Shown: positions 1,744 through 55,255 of the stretch, piece after piece
How positions within the stretch are numbered: the first letter of the stretch is position 1
Layout of the letters: each line of letters begins with the position of its first letter
IMG/VR virus record: IMGVR_UViG_3300025413_001239
DNA from: a virus
Lineage: Duplodnaviria; Caudoviricetes
Reading direction: 5' to 3' (one strand)
DNA: 64,000 nt
Made by a program: the position numbers and the translations under genes
Notes under the pieces: model-generated
The model's database searches: none
What the model was told of the DNA's origin: nothing
Seen by the model: only the letters and a program-made list of their open reading frames with translations

Positions 1744-2855
1744 TTAATTATTATACCAACTCCATTCATACCCACCAGCAGATTTTCTTTCTTTATTGCA
1801 TACTTTTGTTATATTTCCAATTTGAATTCCTAAATGTTTATAAATATAGTTATTGAATTCCACGTATTGATAATAATACCGTTTTTAGATTGAATAACTT
1901 TTTTACCTTTACTAGCTTTATATGTGGTATCTATTAGATTTTTTTTATTTTCAGTTGTTAATTTAACCTTTAAATTATATTTATCAAGTAATATATTCAA
2001 TAATTTTTCATCATAATTTTCAAGATAAAACCAAAATTTATTAAGACAAACACTATTTTTAATTATTGATTGACTTATAGCGGAAGTTGAAACACCATAA
2101 AATTTATTAGCCTCTGACAATGAGTGCCACTCTTTAGTAGTTTTTTTATTTATATCATATTCAATAATTTTTTTATTATTTGTTTTACCATTTATGCTAC
2201 GAATATTATAAGTTCTTTCATGATATTTAGAAATAAAATCTTGAAGATTGGATATGTTTTCAATATCATCCGAGTATCGCCAAATAAAATTATTTAAAGA
2301 AAATCTTTTTAATCTACAAACATCAGTTATTGAACCATAACCGAATTCTTTTTTCACCAAATCAATAGATTCCCATTCTTTAATAAACTCACCATTTAGT
2401 GAAAATTGTTTAACCTTTACTTTTTTAGTATCTAAAAAATCATCACTAAATTTATACCCAGATATACCATCACCACCATTTGTTAAATTAGTTAAAGGAC
2501 CTAAACCTAAATCATTTCTACCAATTAATCTAATTAATTCAACCTCTAAATTAAACGCATCATTTTCGAGCAAGTTTTTTTTAACTCTAATAATGATAGG
2601 TGATAAATTTTCAGATAGAATTTTTTTAATTTTATTGTTTTTATAACTAGATATAAAATTTAAATTATATTCGTTTAAATGACATTTATCTCTAAATCCA
2701 GAACCTTTACCAACATAAAAAGGTTCAAAATCAAATTCAAATTCACCATATTTATAATTTGATTTTTTTCTAGGGTCTAAGTAAACGTAAACATAAAATT
2801 TATTTTTCTTTTTGTTGTATTTCTTAGAATATTCAACTTGTTTTTTATTACTCAT
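1744..2855 (-). mobile_element. Free-standing GIY-YIG (LEM-3-like) homing endonuclease with NUMOD1 repeats; 1-nt frameshift near the 3' end
   Basis: FYVYVYLDPR...FYVGKG and KVKQFSLNGEFIKEWESI. The last NUMOD1 continues in another frame (HLGIQIGNITKVCNKERKSAGGYEW) to TAA at 1744-1746. Confidence 0.8.
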
Positions 2856-3755: not shown

Positions 3756-4407
3756 TTTTCATTCTACCAAAAAAACTTTCATGTGTTTCATTTTTATCAA
3801 CCTTAATCATAACTTCTTTTGCTTTTTCTAATTTAGGTTTTAACCTATTAACATCAAGTGTTGATGGTTTTTTTATTTGTAAAGCATCTAATTTAACTTT
3901 TTGTCTTTTTAATGAATTATAAGCAAAATCGTTCTCTTGTTTTATTAAAATATTTAATTCTGGACCTTTAATATCCTCTAACGATTCATTATGAATATCA
4001 ACAATTTCTGGCACATAAAATATTGGTGAAGAGTTACCGTCATAACCATGTAATGTTGCTTCAACGTGTGGTTTGCGCAACTCATCCATGTAGTTAAGTA
4101 TTTCCTTAACCCTTTCAGTTTTTATATTCCATTCATTTTTTAATATTAATTCATCTGTATTGGGCTTAAAAATTTTTACTTGTTCAAAATAAGATGGTAA
4201 AGGCTTATTAATCATAACCTTTTTTATAGAATACTGTAAATTCGACTTACGAATTCTTGTAAGTCTTTCATATTCTTTCATAGTACCTCTTTTACTCTTG
4301 ATACTAAGATAAACTATCAAGACTTTTAATTTTAAATCTTGAATAAATTCGTTAAATTGTCTTTTAATTTTTTGAAATTTCTTTTTCATTTTATTTCTTT
4401 TTTTCAT
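3712..4407 (-). CDS. Hypothetical protein
   Basis: 231-aa ORF overlapping its neighbours. Confidence 0.6.
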   Translation of the reverse strand: MKKRNKMKKKFQKIKRQFNEFIQDLKLKVLIVYLSIKSKRGTMKEYERLTRIRKSNLQYSIKKVMINKPLPSYFEQVKIFKPNTDELILKNEWNIKTERVKEILNYMDELRKPHVEATLHGYDGNSSPIFYVPEIVDIHNESLEDIKGPELNILIKQENDFAYNSLKRQKVKLDALQIKKPSTLDVNRLKPKLEKAKEVMIKVDKNETHESFFGRMKSEEERINSIDDNHG

Positions 4408-6709
4408 TTACCAGTTTAAGGTATAGGTTTTTTCTATCTTCAGTTACCTTATCCATAGAATACGTATCCTTAACTGTGTTATATAAGTTTTCACTAAGTT
4501 GTGTTACTAATTCTGGTTGTTGAATTAATTTCTTAATTGCTTTAACCCAATCTTTGGTTTGATGTTTACTTGGTTTAATCAAAATACCATTCGCATTAGT
4601 ATCCCAATTACCACCAAATTGTATAGCGTTAGTCACATCAATTTGATATGGACCAAAATCCTGAGCTATAATAGCCTTTTTATGGAATCCAGCTTCGATG
4701 ACTTTTAATTGACTCTTAACCTCATTAAAAATATTATCTTCAATTGGTGCCAATGATACATCAAATAAATTATAATTTGATGCGTATGTACTAATTGGCT
4801 TAGTCCAAACTCTTCTATAAGGTTCGTTAGCTACATTAGGATATTCTTCGTTCTTAAACTTCAATAAGAAATCCTTATACTCTGGACTTACAGTTGAATA
4901 GTTATCGGTAAATATTTTTTCATACTGATACCAAACGCTTTCAGTTGGCTTGATGGGTCTTTGAGTTTGTTGTTTAGTTTGCTCATCAATAATTGTCATA
5001 GTACCTCTAAGGTCATATCCACATAGTACAAATTGTACTTTATCTATAAGACCTTCACGATTAATGGTTCCAACCACATCGTTAATAAGTTCTAAGTCTT
5101 TAAGGTGACTATTGCCAATCCACATTGCTTTGCCGTTTCTTCTGACATAGATAATATGATTTTTAACTTCAACACAATAAACATTACCTTTATAATATCT
5201 ATTATATTGATTTTCTGTTTTAATTAGAGGGGTATTTTTATTATGCTTACTAGTACTATGATGTTTGGTAAAATTAACCACCAATGAATCATATTGTGAC
5301 TTTATTCCTCTTCCTTTAATTTCACTAGTTCGTTTACCTCGATTTGTTATTGTCGCTGAAATACCTATTTTTAAAGCAATTTCTTGTAAATTATTTGCTA
5401 ACGAAGGTGAGCAAGTAAATGCTCTGGTTCTTGTATATTTATTATTTTCAATATGGCCGTCACCTTTAATAAACCAATCTAAAAATATTGTTAATTGTCT
5501 TGGTGATAAATTTAATATTTCTTCAGGTACAAATTTATCATATGCATTACCAAAATTTGATAAGTATTCCCATAACATTTTATCAAAAACCCTAACTTGT
5601 TTTTTGTCTTTAGTATACGTTGGTTTGAAACCCATTTTAATTAATAATTCATACATATATGATAAATACCCATTATCTTTTGTTTGTGCTATACCTACTT
5701 GATGTAACCCATTTGTTTTAGTAGTCCACCCTTCAGCCATCCAAAAACCAAAAAATTGTAACCAATTATCCATATCGATATTTTTATCATAACCATATTT
5801 TTCGGATAATCCATTATAACGTTTTTTTGATATTAATTTATCAATATAGTTTTCGTTTTCTTCAAATTCAGCGTATTCATTTAGCATTGGTAAAACAAAA
5901 TATTTTTCTTTTTTACCAACCCATACTGCATCTTTTTTAACATGGAAATTTTTACCATGTATTTTTTCAGATTGGATTAATTCTAAATCAAGTTTTTTAT
6001 GTGTTAATGATTTGGCCACAGAGGCATACATATTGTGGTTTGGTGTAACTTCGTATTCAACTAAACCATTTTTACAACAATTTAATTCACCTTCAAATGG
6101 TTCACATATGTAACCTGTTGGTTTGTGGTACTCTAATTCATTTGTATTTGGATTTAATGTTGCAACCATTTCGGTTTGATTTAAAGCGTCAAATCTTTTC
6201 CAACCTTCATCAGTCAGAATTTCGGTATCTGGTGTCATACAACTACCACCTAACCAACCAATTCTAAGTCTCTCAGATGGTTCTACATTTGGTGTAAATT
6301 GTTTTTCGGTTGGGTCTACAGCATTTGGAAGTACGAATACGTTTTTATTAAATTTTTTAATTTCATCAGCAAATATGGGTGTTGTTGTTGTAACATTTCT
6401 TGAAATCTTAATGTTATTAAGAATTAACTTATCAAGACCATGATTTTTTATAAGTAAAAAAGCTGGGTGATGTGGTCCTGGGGACCAATAGTCATCTAAG
6501 TCCATTATTGTAACAATACCTAAATTGTCAAGTCTTTCAAGGAGTGCTGGTAATGCGCTATATTCACCAAGGGTTCTATGATAATGTATAATATCATATT
6601 GTTTAAGCCATTCATCATTATCTAATTGTGGTTCATAATCAATATCAATTGAGAACTCATCTGGGTAATTTTGTTCTAGGGCAATATGTGGCTTAGAACT
6701 TCTAAAGTA
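4391..6709 (-). CDS. GT-B (family 4-like) glycosyltransferase, main body; homologous coding extends 68 codons upstream of the tracked ATG with no ATG/GTG/TTG
   Basis: YFRSSKPH...YDIIHYHR...IMDLDDYW, LPNAVD, IGWLGGS|SHLKDL, DVSLAPI, KSQLKVIEAG. Frame is open 6733-4391 with first ATG at 6505. Confidence 0.85.
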   Translation of the reverse strand, partial: YFRSSKPHIALEQNYPDEFSIDIDYEPQLDNDEWLKQYDIIHYHRTLGEYSALPALLERLDNLGIVTIMDLDDYWSPGPHHPAFLLIKNHGLDKLILNNIKISRNVTTTTPIFADEIKKFNKNVFVLPNAVDPTEKQFTPNVEPSERLRIGWLGGSCMTPDTEILTDEGWKRFDALNQTEMVATLNPNTNELEYHKPTGYICEPFEGELNCCKNGLVEYEVTPNHNMYASVAKSLTHKKLDLELIQSEKIHGKNFHVKKDAVWVGKKEKYFVLPMLNEYAEFEENENYIDKLISKKRYNGLSEKYGYDKNIDMDNWLQFFGFWMAEGWTTKTNGLHQVGIAQTKDNGYLSYMYELLIKMGFKPTYTKDKKQVRVFDKMLWEYLSNFGNAYDKFVPEEILNLSPRQLTIFLDWFIKGDGHIENNKYTRTRAFTCSPSLANNLQEIALKIGISATITNRGKRTSEIKGRGIKSQYDSLVVNFTKHHSTSKHNKNTPLIKTENQYNRYYKGNVYCVEVKNHIIYVRRNGKAMWIGNSHLKDLELINDVVGTINREGLIDKVQFVLCGYDLRGTMTIIDEQTKQQTQRPIKPTESVWYQYEKIFTDNYSTVSPEYKDFLLKFKNEEYPNVANEPYRRVWTKPISTYASNYNLFDVSLAPIEDNIFNEVKSQLKVIEAGFHKKAIIAQDFGPYQIDVTNAIQFGGNWDTNANGILIKPSKHQTKDWVKAIKKLIQQPELVTQLSENLYNTVKDTYSMDKVTEDRKNLYLKLVNEKKK
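5111..6241 (-). mobile_element. 377-aa intein with LAGLIDADG domain in the glycosyltransferase
   Basis: Starts CMTPDTEILT, ends NGKAMWIGN|S; FFGFWMAEG and FLDWFIKGDG helices. Splicing restores GWLGGSSHLKDL. Confidence 0.92.
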
Positions 6710-6714
6710 GCTTG

Positions 6715-6801
6715 TCAGCTGACCCCAGTTCTGTCACTAGGTACTACTAATACCTTTACTTTGCGACTAACTGGGGTCAGATTAATAATGTTTGTTGTCA
6801 T
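6715..6801 (-). CDS. 28-codon leader ORF carrying a second copy of the glycosyltransferase N-terminus
   Basis: ATG at 6801 overlaps the endonuclease end: MTTNIINLTPVSRKVKVLVVPSDRTGVS then TGA. Confidence 0.65.
   Translation of the reverse strand: MTTNIINLTPVSRKVKVLVVPSDRTGVS
6719..6780. repeat. Perfect 12-bp inverted repeat enclosing a longer hairpin
   Basis: CTGACCCCAGTT (6719-6730) and AACTGGGGTCAG (6769-6780), with inner GTCGC/GTGAC and GGTATT/AGTACC pairings on the minus-strand transcript. Confidence 0.9.
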
Positions 6802-7671
6802 TTTGTGAAATTAATTCTCTTATTATATTTTTATTTTTTTTGTAATCCGATTCCCAGATTACAATACAATTATAATTATATTTTTTAGCTAAGTCAAGCT
6901 TATTCTTATCATATTCCCATATTTCTTTAGCTGTTTTACTCTTTTTTTTATTATAATACATTGAATCATATTTTTTAGGGTTACAATGCCAGTAATCACC
7001 ATTATACTCAATAAGTAAATTTAGCTCAGGAATATAAATATCAAAAATTTTTGATTCAATAATAAAATTAGGTTCGACTTTTAAATTTATGCTCTCAAGA
7101 TATTTAATAATTTCAAACTCTGGTTTTGAGCGATTAAAAGATTTTAACTCTCCGTTAGCAATTCTATTTTTCATAAGAATACTTAACTTGGTTCTAGTCT
7201 CTTCCATTTTACCACTTTTCCAACGTTCTTTAGCCATAATACTAAACATGTCTTTGTATTCTTGTTTAGACATATGGTCACTAGTTTTAACACCAATTTT
7301 TTTATCTGAAATTGTTTTTTTTGTAGTATTTGAATGAGTTTTTTTAAAAAACGGATTCCCCCCCCAACTTGTTTTTTTAAAGAACATTTTTTACATTCAT
7401 GTTTATTTTTTAAATTTCTATTTAGTAAAGATTTATTGTTTACTGAAAATTTTATTTTTTTATTACATGTAATACAAGTATAATGCCCACACCACATATT
7501 ACCCTCTTGCCAAAAATTTTTATAGAAAGACTCGCCAAGCAATCTATTTCTAGTTAAATTTTTGTCTTTTAATATTTTTAAAACTTGATTTTTTGTAATG
7601 TTAGGTATTAATTTACATATTTTAGTTGACCCAATACCGCTTAAATATAATTCAATTATTTTTTCTTCCAT
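6782..7671 (-). mobile_element. Homing endonuclease (zinc ribbon, NUMOD3, Vsr/DUF559/EDxHD-like nuclease) split by a frameshift in a G8 run
   Basis: ORFs 7183-7671 and 6782-7387 join at a C8 run (7358-7365) to give QVGGGNPFFKKTHS; C-terminal FDIYIPELNLLIEYNGDYWH...IVIWESD. Confidence 0.8.
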
Positions 7672-7674
7672 ATA

Positions 7675-7770
7675 TTATAAATATACAGAAAATAAAAATA
7701 AGTCTAAAAAGCTAACCCCAGTTCTGTCTGATGCTACTACTAAAACTTTAATTTTTTTGTTTTTTGTCAT
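7675..7770 (-). CDS. Orphan first copy of the glycosyltransferase N-terminus (31-codon ORF)
   Basis: MTKNKKIKVLVVASDRTGVS then FLDLFLFSVYL stop. The first 20 aa join YFRS at 6709 in frame if 6710-7710 is removed. Confidence 0.7.
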   Translation of the reverse strand: MTKNKKIKVLVVASDRTGVSFLDLFLFSVYL

Positions 7771-7829
7771 TATTTTTATTTTTAAAACGTTATTTTGATT
7801 AATATACTAAACATAAAATATTAGTCAAT

Positions 7830-7858
7830 AAAAAAGGCCCTATAAGGGCCTTTTTTTT
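7830..7858. terminator. Intrinsic terminator
   Basis: AAAAAAGGCCCT-ATA-AGGGCCTTTTTTTT. Confidence 0.85.
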
Positions 7859-7876
7859 ATTATAAATAATTTTAAT

Positions 7877-8524
7877 TTAAATAGATTTTCTCTTTGGTGT
7901 TACTTTTGGTGTAATTTTACCTTCTTTAATAAGGGTTGTTATTGTAGCCTTTACGGTTTCTTGTGTAACCATTTTATTATAGCTTTTAGTAAAGTACTCA
8001 AGAAGTTTTTTCTCAACCATACTATTAACCATTTCATTTAATTGAGATTTGCTAACTGTAATTGTGTCACCTTGATTAACTGGTCTTTTGATATTTTCAC
8101 TTAATTGTTGTTTAGAACCCTTTAATGGTATACCAGCAACTTTAGCAATATCTTCAGCTGTAAATTTGGATGGTGGTGCTGCAAATTTTGGAACTCTTTT
8201 TTCCATCATTACTTTTTTAATACTATCTGGTAATTTAGAATTCATAACTTGTTCATCACTATAATTATAAACGTTTGATGGTCCAGAAGGTACGTAATTG
8301 TCAAAACTCATTTCTCGTTCATCACTTTCGCTATACATTTCAGCTGGTCTTGATGATTGCCTTTTTGGTGGTGTTTCAACATAATCAAAATTATCTTCGT
8401 AACTTTCTTGAATTTGACCGCTTTGTTTTTTAGGGTTTTCTTTTTCTACTTTATTCATTACAGCAGCAGCTTTACCTAAAATACTACCTAACCTACTAAG
8501 GTCTACTGGTGGTGGTGTTGTCAT
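7877..8524 (-). CDS. Hypothetical protein
   Basis: 215-aa ORF. Confidence 0.7.
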   Translation of the reverse strand: MTTPPPVDLSRLGSILGKAAAVMNKVEKENPKKQSGQIQESYEDNFDYVETPPKRQSSRPAEMYSESDEREMSFDNYVPSGPSNVYNYSDEQVMNSKLPDSIKKVMMEKRVPKFAAPPSKFTAEDIAKVAGIPLKGSKQQLSENIKRPVNQGDTITVSKSQLNEMVNSMVEKKLLEYFTKSYNKMVTQETVKATITTLIKEGKITPKVTPKRKSI

Positions 8525-9554
8525 TTGTGTTTGTTTTTAAGTTGTTATTATTTTTTTGTTTCAACTTTTGTTGTAAACGTTTTTTTAATTCTTTTTCTTT
8601 TTCAATCTTAGCACGAAGTTTTTCTTGTCTAGCTTGTTGTTCTTTTTCTTTTTTTGCTAAATAAGCTTGTTTATCTTCTAGTTCTTTACGTTCAGCATCA
8701 AGTTTATCTTGATATTCTTGTTCCTCACCACTATTAAACTCTTCTTCGTTTTCTTCGTCTTCATCATTCTCATCTTCATCATTTGCAATATAAGATGAGT
8801 TTTTATTTAATTTAAAACCTTGTTTTTTTAACCAATTTGTTGCAGCATCTAAATCACCGTCAGAATTATTTAACGCTTGTCTAGCATCAAAATTACTAAC
8901 TCCAGTTGCTTGTGCTAATTTGTATATAGCATCAGCTGAAACTTCGTTATCTTTAGTTTCTTCTGGATTTTGTTTAATGTAAGAACTAGTATTTGGTTTA
9001 TTAACTTTATATTTTTCTCTATTAGCTTGTATTTTTTGATATTGTTTTTTAAATTCTTCAGGTGATATGTTTGAAACATCTCTTGAAGTAAAATCAGTAC
9101 TTTTTCTTTGATACTTACTTGTTTTATACTTATCATCGAATGTAGCAATGTCACGTACTGTTTTCATAGTTCTATCACCATTTGGATTAAACTTATCCAT
9201 TGGTCTATAAAACTTCATTTTGGTTGGTTGCCAACTACGGATTCTATCCAACCTAAAAATTTTCCAAGCACTACGACCTGGTGTTGTTTTAGAACCACCA
9301 CCAACTTGATAAGCTCTTATGGCTTTATTGTCAGCTATGGTATCTGAAAAGTTATATACTTGAATATACCTTTTACTAGGTGGTGCATCTGGATAATCTT
9401 CATAAGTTATATTTACAAAGTACTTTCCATTAATAGCATCAATAACAGCCTCATCTGAAACATTTTCAGTTAAAAGACTAGCGGTCTCTTCTAATATAAT
9501 ATTTTCAAATAATTTGTAAAGTTTCATTAATAATAAACTATTACTTGACCACAA
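8496..9554 (-). CDS. WYL-like domain plus EF-Ts N-terminal (UBA-like) domain, acidic tract and coiled coil
   Basis: WKIFRLDRIRSW; ADAIYKLAQATGVSNFDARQALNNSDGDLDAATNWLKKQG. Confidence 0.6.
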   Translation of the reverse strand: MWSSNSLLLMKLYKLFENIILEETASLLTENVSDEAVIDAINGKYFVNITYEDYPDAPPSKRYIQVYNFSDTIADNKAIRAYQVGGGSKTTPGRSAWKIFRLDRIRSWQPTKMKFYRPMDKFNPNGDRTMKTVRDIATFDDKYKTSKYQRKSTDFTSRDVSNISPEEFKKQYQKIQANREKYKVNKPNTSSYIKQNPEETKDNEVSADAIYKLAQATGVSNFDARQALNNSDGDLDAATNWLKKQGFKLNKNSSYIANDEDENDEDEENEEEFNSGEEQEYQDKLDAERKELEDKQAYLAKKEKEQQARQEKLRAKIEKEKELKKRLQQKLKQKNNNNLKTNTNDNTTTSRP

Positions 9555-9898
9555 TTTTTTGTCATATCTGGTTGCTTATAGCAATGATTTGGGTCAAAGC
9601 CCCATGTACCTAAATTTAGGGCAAATGCTGGCTTACGACCAGAACCTTGAGCTACATTTGGATTACCGTTAATATCCAAATCAGAACCACCATTATAATT
9701 TATAATAGCTGCTTGTAAATCATCACCAGTACCCTTTCCGTAATTTGGTGTTGTTTGGTCAGCCAATGCTCTAGTGTGGGTTACTGTATATTCATTTGAT
9801 GTAATGCAGTTATATGTATTTTGTGGAATTAAGCAATTTCTTGCTGAAATTGCTGCAATTTCTAGTGGTGATTGACCACCGTTTACTGGTGCTGGCAT
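9527..9898 (-). CDS. Hypothetical protein
   Basis: 123-aa ORF, G/N-rich, possibly structural. Confidence 0.65.
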   Translation of the reverse strand: MPAPVNGGQSPLEIAAISARNCLIPQNTYNCITSNEYTVTHTRALADQTTPNYGKGTGDDLQAAIINYNGGSDLDINGNPNVAQGSGRKPAFALNLGTWGFDPNHCYKQPDMTKNCGQVIVYY

Positions 9899-22868: not shown

Positions 22869-25112
22869 ATGAGAATAACTGGAGATACAATACTAGCTTC
22901 TTCATACGAAGTACAAAAATCAACACCATTAGATACTAGACAATGGGTTCAAAATTTATCAGATTTAACTGGTGTGACATTTGGTTCATATTATAGTGGT
23001 ATGACCGTTTCAGTTTATGGTGATACAGCATCAACAGCTAATAATGGTGTATATTATTTTAATGGCCAAAATCAAACTAGTTTAAGTAGTTGGGTTAAAT
23101 TAATTGATACAACCGTAATTGGAAATTACTTGACACTATCTGGTGGAACTGTAAGTGGTAATACTGTATTTTTAAGTGGTCTTACCGCAACAACAATATC
23201 CGCTACAACATATCAGAATCTACCAGCAACACCATACTTGAATTTATCTGGTGGAACTGTTACTGGTGCAACGAAATTTACTAGTGGACTTACAGCAAAT
23301 ACAATATCCGCTACAACATATCAGAATCTACCAGCAACACCATACTTACCTCTATCTGGTGGAACTGTTACTGGTAATACCGTATTTACTAGTGGACTTA
23401 CCGCAACTACGTTAAACGTGGGTCAAATATTTAGTGTTAATAGTAATGGTAATGTTGGGTTTGGTACTAACATTTCAGGTGGTACAACTAATGGAATGTG
23501 GTATGATGCTACAAATAAAGCATTAAATATTAATAACCAAACACCTCAAAGTACATATAATTTAGAGGTTAATGGTACAATTAGAAGTAATAATGGTATT
23601 TTTCTTGGTCAATACTCAGCTCCAAGCTTAAGTGCAACAACTGGTACATCGGGTACATTAACAGCTGGTACTTATTATTATATTGTCACAACTGTAGATA
23701 ACTATGGTAATTCGACAAATGGTAGTAATGAGGTATCAGCAACATTACCAATTGGTACCACAAATGGTAGTATTTATTTAACTTGGAATCTTATCTCAGG
23801 GGCTTCATCATATAATCTTTATAGGTCTACTGGTGGTACAAAAAATGAAAACCAATACATTAATGTATCATCATCAATAGGTGCATCAAGTGTTCCAACA
23901 ACTGTCTCATATACTGATAAAAACTACACTGGTTATACAAATGGTACTGTTCCAGCATTTAATGCATCGGCTCAAATAGCCATACAACCAAGTGCTGGTA
24001 GAACAATTACATCTGGTGGTGCATTATTTGTTGGTGATGGAAACAATTATTTAAGTGATGTGGTATTAACATTAAATCCATCATTTAGTGTTGCTGGTCC
24101 TTCGTCATCTGGTTCGACACCTAGTAATAGACTTATAGTTAAGGGTTTAAGTTGGAACTCAACATATGGTGCTACACCAAGCGTTGGTTTTTTACAAATG
24201 AACAATGTTTTAAATAATAACAACCCAACGATTGATAAGCTTTCATTTAGTGTTGGTTCGGCTACTCAATCAAATTATAATGGTTCAACACTTAATGGTG
24301 TTGAGAGATTCAACATACAGACTGACGGTTCATTTAACCATTATCTTTCAAATAAATTTAATGTATCCCAATCATTGACTGGAAATGGAAACATAAATTT
24401 ATATAGTGGTTCAACAACTGTTTATGGGAATGTAACTAACTTTTTAACCCAATTTAATATAGGTGATACGTTTACTGCTGGAACTAATGTTTATACTGTA
24501 ACAGCTATTACCAGTGATTCACAATTAAGTATAAGTCCAGCATTTTCTGGAACTTTGACATCTAACCAAATAACTATTCTATTATATAGTGGTGCTTCTT
24601 CTGGTGTTACATATTATGGGGATGTTAGTAAATGGGCGTTTGCACCTAATACACAAATTACAATAAGTGGTTCGGTATATACTGTGATATCATCTGCCGC
24701 TGGTACATTTTATTTAGGTACAAACTTTACTGGTACAACTAGTGCTTATACATATACAACATATAATACTTATAATACACCATATTATTTAAATGGTGGT
24801 ACTAAATTTAATGTTAACGCTAATGGTCAAACAACTATTAATGGTAAATTAAGTATTCTTTCTGGTGTTACTGGAAGTAGTGCTTCTGTGGGTACTGCTA
24901 AATTTACTTCTGGTGTTGTGACTTTAACTAATACATGTATAACATCAAATTCTAAAGTGTTCTTAACCGTTACCGCACCTTCTGGTAATATTGGTATACC
25001 AACAAGAAGTGGTACAACAACCAATTCTATGCAAATTGTTAGTTTATCAGCTGGTACAACAGCCGTTCAAACTGGTGATAATAGTACATTTGATTATTGG
25101 ATTATAAATTAA
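22869..25112 (+). CDS. Putative tail fibre protein
   Basis: PLDTRQWV N-terminus; shares the 36-aa repeat with 11571-16970; GTYYYIVTTVDNYG beta-rich domain. Confidence 0.7.
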   Translation: MRITGDTILASSYEVQKSTPLDTRQWVQNLSDLTGVTFGSYYSGMTVSVYGDTASTANNGVYYFNGQNQTSLSSWVKLIDTTVIGNYLTLSGGTVSGNTVFLSGLTATTISATTYQNLPATPYLNLSGGTVTGATKFTSGLTANTISATTYQNLPATPYLPLSGGTVTGNTVFTSGLTATTLNVGQIFSVNSNGNVGFGTNISGGTTNGMWYDATNKALNINNQTPQSTYNLEVNGTIRSNNGIFLGQYSAPSLSATTGTSGTLTAGTYYYIVTTVDNYGNSTNGSNEVSATLPIGTTNGSIYLTWNLISGASSYNLYRSTGGTKNENQYINVSSSIGASSVPTTVSYTDKNYTGYTNGTVPAFNASAQIAIQPSAGRTITSGGALFVGDGNNYLSDVVLTLNPSFSVAGPSSSGSTPSNRLIVKGLSWNSTYGATPSVGFLQMNNVLNNNNPTIDKLSFSVGSATQSNYNGSTLNGVERFNIQTDGSFNHYLSNKFNVSQSLTGNGNINLYSGSTTVYGNVTNFLTQFNIGDTFTAGTNVYTVTAITSDSQLSISPAFSGTLTSNQITILLYSGASSGVTYYGDVSKWAFAPNTQITISGSVYTVISSAAGTFYLGTNFTGTTSAYTYTTYNTYNTPYYLNGGTKFNVNANGQTTINGKLSILSGVTGSSASVGTAKFTSGVVTLTNTCITSNSKVFLTVTAPSGNIGIPTRSGTTTNSMQIVSLSAGTTAVQTGDNSTFDYWIIN

Positions 25113-53698: not shown

Positions 53699-55255
53699 AT
53701 GAAAATAAAGTTAAATTGTATAAACTGTAATAATGATTTTGAAACGGAGTTTAAATATAGAAGTAAGAAGTTTTGTGGTAGGAAGTGTTTTTTTGAATAT
53801 TCTAAAGAGCATAAAACTATTGGTAGAAAAATAGATGAAGAAATAAGGGAAAAAAGAATTTGTTTAATTTGTAATAAAGAATTTGAGTGTAAGAAAAAAC
53901 AAGAAAATAAAATGTGTTCTAATGAGTGTAGAAAAGAATGGAACTCTATAGAAGAAAATAAGTCTAATAGAATAAAATTAAGTAAAGATACATTATTAAT
54001 AAATCATGGTGTTGATTCAATGTTTAAGAAAATTGAATATAAAGCTAACCGTAATCAAATTTTCTTAGATAAAATAGGTGTTATAAATCCGATGAAAGAT
54101 AAGTTAATTGTAAATAAACTACAAAAAACTCTGAATGAAAAACAAATTAAAAACTTACTACCAAAACTTAATGAACATAATATAATATTACTTGATGAAT
54201 ACAGTGTAAATAAAAGTGGTTCAACATCAATGTCTTATAATTTTAAATGTAAAAAGTGTGAAAATATATTTTCAAGTACCGTGCTTGGTTCTGGTAAGAT
54301 ACCAATTTGTAGAAAATGTACACCGTTAGAAAAAAATTCAAAAATTGAAGAAGTAATAAAGGATTTTTTAAATTTAAAAAATATTAAACACTTAGATAAC
54401 AGTAGAAAAATACTTAACGGTAAAGAGATTGATATATTCTTGAGCGATTTTAATTTAGGTATAGAGGTAGACGGCAATTATTTTCATAGTGAAATAAGTG
54501 GTGAAAAAGATAGTAAATATCATTTAAGTAAAACAAAATTAGCACATGAAAAAAATATAAAATTAATACACATATTTGAAGACGAAATACTATATAAAAA
54601 AGACATAGTATTATCTAGATTGAGTAATCAGTTAAATTTAAATAATATAAGATACTTTGCAAGAAATTGTGAAATTAGAATTGTAAGTAAAAAAGAATCT
54701 ACTTTATTTTTAGATAATAATCATATTCAAGGAAATTCTATTGATTTAATAAGATTAGGGTTATATTATAATAATATATTAATTTCATTAATGACATTTG
54801 GTAAAGAGCGAAAAGCTTTAGGTAATATAGAAACTGAGGATACTTATGAATTGGTTAGATTTTGTAATTTAATAAATTCTAATGTTGTTGGTGGGTTTTC
54901 TAAACTTTTAAAACATTTTATTGTAACATATAAACCTAAAAAAATTGTAACTTACGCTGATATTAGATGGTCTGGATTAAATGAATTAGATACTGTTTAT
55001 ATAAAAAATGGTTTTAAGTATATTAAAAATACATCACCAAATTATTGGTACTTAAAAGTTGGACAATATAATCATAGATATCATAGATATAATTTTAGAA
55101 AAGATATTCTAGTTAAAGAAGGTTTTGATAAAAACATGTCTGAATTTGAGATTATGAAATTAAAGGAATTTGATAGAATATGGGACTGTGGAAATATGAA
55201 ATTTGAATGGACTAGAAATTCAATTTGTAATCATGAACTCAGGTGCATCATTTGA
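53699..55255 (+). mobile_element. Hef-like homing endonuclease: zinc ribbons, Vsr/EDxHD-like nuclease, GNAT(Mom)-like C-terminus
   Basis: CxxC...FCGRKC; EIDIFLSDFNLGIEVDGNYFH; YELVRFC...GGFSKLLKHF...IVTYAD. Confidence 0.75.

Follow-up and report, generated by a model that had tools for sequence, protein, structure and literature searches.

How can a gene continue to make its product once a homing endonuclease gene has settled within its 5′ end, and once a stop codon and a change of reading frame separate its replacement start from the rest of the coding sequence? This question is raised by a glycosyltransferase gene in the IMG/VR virus record IMGVR_UViG_3300025413_001239 (Duplodnaviria; Caudoviricetes), of which a stretch of 64,000 nucleotides (nt), hereafter the window, was analysed; all window coordinates refer to its full length. 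The first-pass annotation of this DNA had proposed that the endonuclease insert, which is flanked by two versions of the same N-terminus, either supplies a replacement N-terminus or is passed over by a guided RNA excision or a long bypass. When we compared the locus with about 60 distinct alleles of the same layout from viral and metagenome contigs, we found that the first of these proposals holds, while the second gives way to a much shorter step. It seems probable to us, from the comparison of sequences, that the insert is a mobile endonuclease cassette, whose target-site-disrupting gap would be crossed by a programmed ribosomal hop. The parts of the locus on which the argument depends are the following:

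7675 to 7770, minus strand: copy 1, starting at the ATG at 7770, MTKNKKIKVLVVASDRTGVS, best read as the orphaned original 5′ end of the glycosyltransferase gene.
6782 to 7671, minus strand: homing endonuclease gene with a helix-turn-helix, Cys4, NUMOD3 and a Vsr-like nuclease domain, broken in the window by a -1 frameshift.
7358 to 7365, minus strand: run of eight G at which the endonuclease frame switches, one base fewer than in the intact gene of locus L128.
6715 to 6801, minus strand: copy 2, the replacement N-terminus, starting at the ATG at 6801, MTTNIINLTPVSRKVKVLVVPSDRTGVS, 28 codons and then TGA; its ATG overlaps the 3′ end of the endonuclease gene.
6719 to 6780, minus strand: conserved RNA hairpin, with a 5′ arm at 6780-6769, a 3′ arm at 6730-6719 and inner helices between them.
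6718 to 6720, minus strand: proposed take-off codon AGC (Ser).
6713 to 6717, minus strand: coding gap TGACA, which opens with the stop TGA (6717-6715).
6710 to 6712, minus strand: proposed landing codon AGC, decoding being proposed to resume at TAC (6709-6707).
4391 to 6709, minus strand: main frame of the glycosyltransferase, of GT4 type and GT-B fold; it begins YFRSSKPH, and an intein is counted among its 772 codons.
6710 to 7710, minus strand: the 1001-nt excision proposed in the first-pass annotation, which is in frame but whose mechanism is not supported.

The two versions of the N-terminus form a 46-nt direct repeat of 78% identity (6717-6762 and 7710-7755), in agreement with what had been noticed earlier. 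The frame of copy 1 enters unrelated sequence and ends at 7675 as a mini open reading frame (ORF) of 31 codons, its stop lying 3 nt before the endonuclease ATG. At the other end of the insert, the ATG of copy 2 sits within the last endonuclease codons and copy 2 closes with ...KVKVLVVPSDRTGVS, the 3′ arm of the hairpin terminating within the proposed take-off codon. The local order is AGC TGA CA AGC TAC, the main frame restarting 8 nt past the first AGC; copy 2 and the frame that begins with YFRS are in different reading frames, which the earlier annotation had not mentioned. Copy 2 lies 8 nt out of register with the gene, which it can reach by a short recoding step. Endonuclease gene and copy 2 N-terminus occur together in more than 30 loci, which bears out the idea that the insert is an element supplying a replacement N-terminus.

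When the N-terminal portion of the main frame was used as a protein query, 80 viral-contig loci with 54-80% identity were recovered. Sixty-eight of them are uninterrupted and start M(x)2-6 K[IVL]KVLVVPSDRTGV[S/G][Y/F/K]FRS, while 12 (9 distinct sequences) break at exactly the junction between [S/G] and [Y/F]. All 12 interrupted loci carry an extra N-terminal stretch, xTPVGRK, which forms a hairpin with the RTGV codons, then a stop right behind the Ser/Gly codon and, a few bases on, a second Ser/Gly codon followed by the rest of the gene. The extension and the hairpin are present in 12 of 12 interrupted loci and in 0 of 68 uninterrupted ones. Viral and metagenome contigs were also scanned with a DNA pattern consisting of the hairpin cores only, in which the stop was not required. 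The scan yielded 48 distinct alleles of the glycosyltransferase gene, and about a dozen others, from a more distant glycosyltransferase clade, came from querying with the endonuclease protein. These last alleles, although not chosen for the hairpin, still have one that ends at the same codon, and they likewise have a stop directly behind the take-off codon. Ten alleles obtained through the endonuclease carry the same hairpin, some of them building its core from other bases (e.g. GGA paired with TCC). The numbers of alleles given here are not equal to numbers of independent events.

A stop directly follows the Ser/Gly codon in all 48 alleles found with the pattern (34 TGA, 12 TAA and 2 TAG). 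The distance from take-off to the point where the frame restarts is 5, 6, 7, 8, 9 or 10 nt in 3, 10, 14, 19, 1 and 1 of these alleles, respectively, and all three frame relations occur. The longest gap seen among the alleles is that of L218 (~2480-2500), where GGC TGAATTTAAA GGA AAA amounts to a 13-nt step over two stops. The codons on the two sides of the gap pair up as follows:

Take-off AGY, landing AGY: 13 alleles.
Take-off AGY, landing GGC: 8 alleles.
Take-off AGY, landing AGA: 3 alleles.
Take-off GGY, landing GGY: 19 alleles.
Take-off GGY, landing GGA: 5 alleles.
Take-off GGC, landing AGC: 1 allele.

The landing codon is strictly cognate in 31 of the 48 alleles, including the window (AGC/AGC), and in these no other cognate triplet stands between it and the take-off codon, whatever the frame. 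TCN is found at neither the take-off nor the landing position, though it is frequent for this Ser in uninterrupted alleles. Landing on AGA (Arg), which would give a drastic residue if translated, agrees with re-pairing at a codon that is itself never decoded.

The hairpin itself is well marked in the window, where it folds at -32.7 kcal/mol (z -5.0) and 0 of 200 shuffled sequences fold as well. In the alignment of 48 sequences, 89.7% of the cells are paired, and the covariation score is 0.242 as against 0.123 in shuffles, none of 500 of which reaches 0.242; controls slid along the alignment give at most 0.109. One pair of the hairpin displays all four Watson-Crick types, and covariation extends to the take-off codon, whose first base changes in step with its partner (A-U or G-C). 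A further 3-bp helix, AGCU...AGCU across the gap, which was returned by RNAalifold, was rejected as a by-product of the duplicated codon that GGY alleles cannot form. Two selected coding parts, a variable gap with a stop, a codon for the same tRNA after it and an RNA structure before it together give the signature by which bypassing of the gene 60 type is recognized.

The endonuclease family was recognized only from intact relatives, a Pfam search with the two half-frames of the window having given no match; 17 distinct intact homologues of 291-312 amino acids exist. For the nuclease domain, the model (mean predicted local distance difference test score, pLDDT, of 77) has as its four best PDB matches I-Bth0305I (3r3p) and Escherichia coli Vsr (1vsr, 1cw0), the match to I-Bth0305I having a target-normalised template modelling (TM) score of 0.73 and an E-value of 1e-3, with E-values that are borderline. 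NUMOD3 scores 24.9 bits in L049 (cut-off 20.4) and 19.7 bits in L001, and PHROG homing-endonuclease families match the cassette endonuclease with E-values of 5e-12 and 3e-10. As for the base missing from the eight-G run in the window (7358-7365), it could be decay, a homopolymer sequencing error or a slippery site.

Several observations point to a mobile cassette. Among the first 80 loci, the endonuclease gene is found only beside interrupted alleles and always ends at, or overlaps, the new ATG. When we considered the 39 interrupted alleles with enough upstream DNA, we found the full set of copy 1, endonuclease gene and copy 2 in 12, as in the window, and the endonuclease gene with no copy 1 in 13, while 14 have lost the endonuclease gene, some of these keeping a remnant of its last codons. 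The 12 loci with a copy 1 share a conserved left junction, (Y)(L/F)DFL. The interrupted state requires 20 or more changes when placed on the glycosyltransferase tree, at least 8 being forced by starred branches, and near-identical genes differ in state (L017 and L015; L010 and L144). The closest relative of the window, L128, is 92-100% identical to it from ~7250 to 6707 and ~78% identical right after the landing codon, and the exchange points between L010 and L144 lie inside copy 1 and just past the landing codon. With these identity boundaries, the gap marks where the transferred DNA ends on the right, as would be expected of the site at which a homing break is repaired. From the scattered distribution and the sharp identity boundary we infer that alleles without the endonuclease gene would be cleaved site-specifically. 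Paralogues of the endonuclease with 35-41% identity (L231-L250 and L257) immediately precede glycosyltransferase genes that are uninterrupted, begin with a short N-terminus and lack both the extension and the gap; these genes lie ~20-70 nt beyond the end of the endonuclease match. Since these paralogues adjoin uninterrupted genes, the free-standing position is probably the older state, the gap having been added later in one lineage.

Does the gene behind the gap still function? A mobile cassette could have killed a dispensable glycosyltransferase gene, the gap being a repair scar or an immunity mutation and the gene bodies being intact because the invasions are recent. Indeed, some invasions are recent, the endonuclease of the window is already frameshifted and one allele, L167, carries a nonsense codon. 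However, the downstream gene is full length in 36 of the 38 alleles with enough sequence. Within a well-supported clade whose members all carry the gap, the ratio of nonsynonymous to synonymous divergence (dN/dS) of the glycosyltransferase is 0.05-0.25, with dS at ~1 or more in most pairs, while the resident endonuclease genes have diverged in parallel (dS ~1); where both genes have reached synonymous saturation, dN/dS of the glycosyltransferase is still 0.05-0.12. Selection together with this co-divergence to synonymous saturation means that the gene has long been functional with the cassette in place. The two exceptions to full length are L167, where a single TAA replaces the Leu codon TTA of relatives ~300 nt after the gap and which may be a genuinely dead allele, and L103, whose seeming truncation lies where N runs and a duplicated segment occur, which points to an assembly problem. 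Where the endonuclease gene has been lost, hairpin, stop and landing codon persist and the gene is still full length. Moreover, at the Leu, Ser (AGY/TCN) and Arg (AGR/CGN) codons of copy 2, every change among the 48 alleles is synonymous, so the peptide appears to be translated and selected, and the AGY/TCN and AGR/CGN switches are accompanied by compensating changes in the other arm of the covarying hairpin. For these reasons we find it improbable that the interrupted genes are dead.

The predicted structure of the protein agrees with a need for both coding parts. An AlphaFold model of an intact homologue (pLDDT 86; predicted TM score, pTM, 0.84) shows the two-Rossmann GT-B/GT4 fold, its best matches being GlgM, MshA, BshA, PimA and PglA with E-values from 1e-12 to 1e-9. 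At the sequence level the GT4 matches are weak: a PDB profile search gave a GT1-family match at E 0.012, and NCBIfam gave no match for the intact glycosyltransferase. The model places the gap where helix alpha-1 begins, right behind strand beta-1 (KVLVVP) and its loop. The N-terminal piece would accordingly be integral to the fold, and it is not plausibly dispensable or supplied in trans.

We propose the following scenario. A free-standing endonuclease gene of the Vsr-like/NUMOD3 kind has invaded a phage gene for a GT4 glycosyltransferase at its 5′ end. The invading cassette comprises a left junction by which the original start is orphaned, the endonuclease gene itself, a fresh start codon with an extension of 8-10 residues, copy 2 and the gap. 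The stop-containing gap would be placed between the Ser/Gly and the Tyr/Phe codons of the motif SDRTGV[S/G][Y/F]FRS. By analogy with MobA and gene 60 of phage T4, it probably destroys the recognition site of the endonuclease in a motif too conserved for substitution, and so protects the carrier. A translating ribosome would read copy 2 until AGC occupies the P site and UGA the A site; at this moment of take-off the 3′ arm of the hairpin would lie in the E site and the exit channel, while the inner helices and the 5′ arm would already be outside the ribosome. The outer 11-12 pairs could then zip, pulling the mRNA a few bases out on the exit side, and the peptidyl-tRNA(Ser) would leave its AGC and re-pair with the next AGC 8 nt downstream (5-13 nt across alleles). 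Decoding from UAC would give a single polypeptide, ...SDRTGVS-YFRS.... The conserved extension could alternatively act as a nascent-peptide signal. Going one step further, we lean towards the view that these alleles form a widespread family of natural 5-13-nt hops in lake and sea phages, with an evolutionary origin separate from that of T4 gene 60, in which the bypass serves the endonuclease as a "translational intron" for breaking its own target site inside an essential motif, and in which the forward pull comes from a hairpin re-forming on the exit side instead of from a take-off stem-loop.

Some observations weigh against this proposal. The hop is proposed from sequence comparison, and in 17 of the 48 alleles the landing codon is one position off and is near-cognate only, although the largest group of this kind (AGY to GGC) pairs if a first-position G-U is allowed. 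The hairpin lies 5′ of take-off, unlike the essential take-off stem-loop of gene 60, which makes the driving of a hop by such a hairpin a proposal. As the hairpin overlaps coding sequence, conservation of the peptide could partly reflect constraint on the RNA. The 48 pattern-derived alleles are also enriched for the hairpin by design, the sets found with protein and with endonuclease queries being the unbiased controls, and the L231-L250 paralogues indicate that the gap is not obligatory for this endonuclease family.

The short gap could also be removed or skipped on the RNA, by a hairpin-guided editing or mini-splicing, and not by the ribosome. A conserved hairpin does end at the gap, and the comparison of sequences cannot separate removal from a hop. 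However, we know of no bacterial or phage system that takes 5-13 nt out of an mRNA. The invariable stop, the landing codon for the same tRNA and the indifference to frame are, moreover, hallmarks of hopping that an excision would not need (10.1101/2022.08.31.505936), and we give removal on the RNA as little credence as the death of the gene.

A split protein is less likely still, and we regard it as very doubtful. The 28-residue peptide and the remainder would be made separately by termination and reinitiation and would assemble like NrdA split by MobE; genes split by endonucleases whose products reassemble are known, NrdA and gp39/gp60 being the cases cited in 10.1101/2022.08.31.505936. However, the landing site of the window and its surroundings offer no ATG, GTG or TTG, the first in the main frame being 69 codons past the landing codon at 6505, and none is conserved among the alleles. 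In addition, one beta-strand and a loop, of 17-28 residues, would according to the model be unlikely to form an independent subunit.

The 1001-nt step of the first-pass annotation, an RNA excision of 6710-7710 or a bypass of the same length that would fuse copy 1 with YFRS under the guidance of CUGACCCCAGUU paired to the copy 1 end, retains hardly any plausibility. The observations on which it was built were accurate. AGCT stands at both junctions, and removal of the 1001 nt gives an in-frame MTKNKKIKVLVVASDRTGVS-YFRSSKPH; CTGACCCCAGTT (6780-6769) is the exact complement of AACTGGGGTCAG (6730-6719) and also pairs over 12 nt, with one G-U, with AACTGGGGTTAG of copy 1; and the proposed excision holds little sequence outside ORFs, 39 nt on its 5′ side and 72 nt on its 3′ side. 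However, 27 of the 39 alleles have no copy 1, and 14 of these have no endonuclease gene either, yet the gap and an intact gene are kept. The Infernal-type check that had been suggested, a Rfam scan of 6300-8000 with E up to 10, gave no intron family, just weak small-RNA and terminator-like matches around a hairpin at 7830-7856. The AGCT junctions can yield neither a 5′ exon U together with an intron-terminal G (group I) nor GUGYG...AY ends (group II). The suggested covariation test likewise spoke against a guide, the 5′ arm covarying with the 3′ arm of copy 2 itself. The G4 core that the pairing requires is kept by copy 1 in just 2 of 12 loci (the window and L144), since copy 1 mostly encodes Gly by GGT, GGA or GGC and thereby breaks the C4:G4 core, while the 3′ arm of the hairpin is complementary to the 5′ arm in all 12. 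The pairing with copy 1 in the window is a by-product of the homology between the two copies, and the comparison of alleles favours a short recoding step (8 nt) over an excision. Copy 1 is best read as a remnant, the orphaned start of the recipient; because its stop lies 3 nt before the endonuclease ATG, it may at most serve as a leader for that gene. Other explanations were rejected outright: stop-codon reassignment or readthrough, as all three stops occur and most gaps are not multiples of three; transcriptional slippage, as the gap holds no homopolymer; and an assembly artefact, as the layout recurs in more than 60 independent assemblies.

Around and within the cassette, the following further features were annotated:

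7830 to 7856, no strand given: terminator-like G+C hairpin with a 12-pair stem and then a T run, after the upstream gene 7877-8524.
7801 to 7828, minus strand: promoter-like TTGACT, 16 nt, TATATT, ahead of copy 1; a consensus match only, which may not be of the host's type.
5111 to 6241, minus strand: LAGLIDADG intein of 377 amino acids within the same glycosyltransferase gene, with the junctions GGS/C...GN/SH.

The motif of the promoter-like site also occurs in relatives (e.g. L063, L010 and L144). Inside the 3′ end of the endonuclease gene, a strong match to a sigma-70-like promoter (TTGACT, 17 nt, TATAAT; 11 of 12 positions; 6869-6897, minus strand) lies ~68 nt ahead of the ATG of copy 2; it could drive the glycosyltransferase without the endonuclease gene, or be a chance match in A+T-rich DNA. 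The intein is patchy among relatives, whose gene products are of ~770 or ~400 amino acids, so that two selfish elements target one gene. Elsewhere in the window, a second homing endonuclease gene (53699-55255, plus strand; 518 amino acids) matches PHROG 3339 (E 8e-99) and 559 (E 1e-83), the families to which the cassette endonuclease is also matched, and an ORF at 1830-2855 (minus strand) has a LEM-3-like GIY-YIG nuclease domain (Pfam E 2e-11), which makes it a third mobile-nuclease candidate nearby. A K1-lyase C-terminal (chaperone-type) domain (Pfam E 6e-6), such as tail fibres and spikes have, closes a protein of 747 residues (22869-25112, plus strand). A megablast search of 4300-9600 against the phage collection gave no match.

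The closest known parallel in organization is the gene 60/MobA cassette of phage T4. Each combines an endonuclease gene with a gap that opens on a stop into a single mobile unit, placed within a conserved motif of a phage gene; in each, the stop stands directly behind the take-off codon and the downstream part carries an N-terminal extension. In both, the endonuclease decays or is lost while the gap persists, and the gap plausibly shields the carrier genome from its own endonuclease. A landing codon that is matched or wobble-matched belongs to the gene 60 system; among our 48 alleles it is strictly cognate in 31 and one position off in 17. The gap is 50 nt in gene 60 and 5-13 nt here. Gene 60 has a take-off stem-loop 3′ of the take-off codon and an internal Shine-Dalgarno sequence, neither of which is found here, while its 5′ stem-loop is poorly conserved, unlike the covarying 5′ hairpin that ends in the take-off codon of our alleles. 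The host gene there is Topo2L (Toprim domain) and the endonuclease the HNH enzyme MobA, as opposed to a GT4 glycosyltransferase and a Vsr-like enzyme, and the upstream fragment is a functional subunit in the gene 60 system but a useless remnant of 20 residues here. We saw no sequence similarity between the two cassettes. Since gap length, position of the structure, host gene and endonuclease family all differ and no homology was seen, we do not class the glycosyltransferase cassette as a member of the gene 60 family; it would be a separate, short-range counterpart, in which programmed bypassing is likewise linked to a homing endonuclease.

Vsr-like endonucleases have reportedly been found together with split inteins in a study of "fractured genes", and MobE in nrdA is said to be a free-standing endonuclease that splits a phage gene. 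In those systems, as here, a free-standing endonuclease lies in or next to a conserved gene and a device restores its function; the device is a split intein or the assembly of subunits there, and an mRNA recoding site here.

The gene 60 cassette has been called unique and restricted to Topo2L (Manning and Atkins, bioRxiv 10.1101/2022.08.31.505936), and pairing of the exiting mRNA has been proposed as the driver of forward movement in gene 60, a question raised in 10.1101/2024.12.09.627546. Shorter natural counterparts of the bypass have "long been presumed", no natural hop over an in-frame stop being known (Atkins et al. 2016, PMC5009743). The short hops obtained by engineering or starvation (PMC5009743) resemble ours in their short distance, in the matched codons around a stop and in their independence of frame; those hops are inefficient, whereas here the site is natural, occurs in ~60 alleles and has a dedicated hairpin. 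The byps of Magnusiomyces capitatus (cited in PMC5009743), which lie in mitochondrial genes, differ from the cassette in spanning 27-55 nt with an unused sense codon in the A site; they have no link to an endonuclease, unlike the cassette, and seem independent of mRNA context. No published description of a glycosyltransferase short-hop cassette was found in the literature searched, the coverage of which is incomplete.

Outside yeast mitochondria, programmed bypassing is known from a single studied case, that of T4 gene 60. If the reading proposed here is true, the glycosyltransferase genes would add a second, independent cassette, and their dozens of variants in gap length, frame, stop and codon pair, together with the 5′ hairpin, would make up a natural mutational series. 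Such a series could be used to test how a peptidyl-tRNA is released and lands, and whether pairing of the exiting mRNA drives the movement. There is also a consequence for annotation, where genes of this kind are called truncated or pseudogenes. Finally, the cassette shows selfish endonucleases colonising conserved motifs without an intron or an intein.

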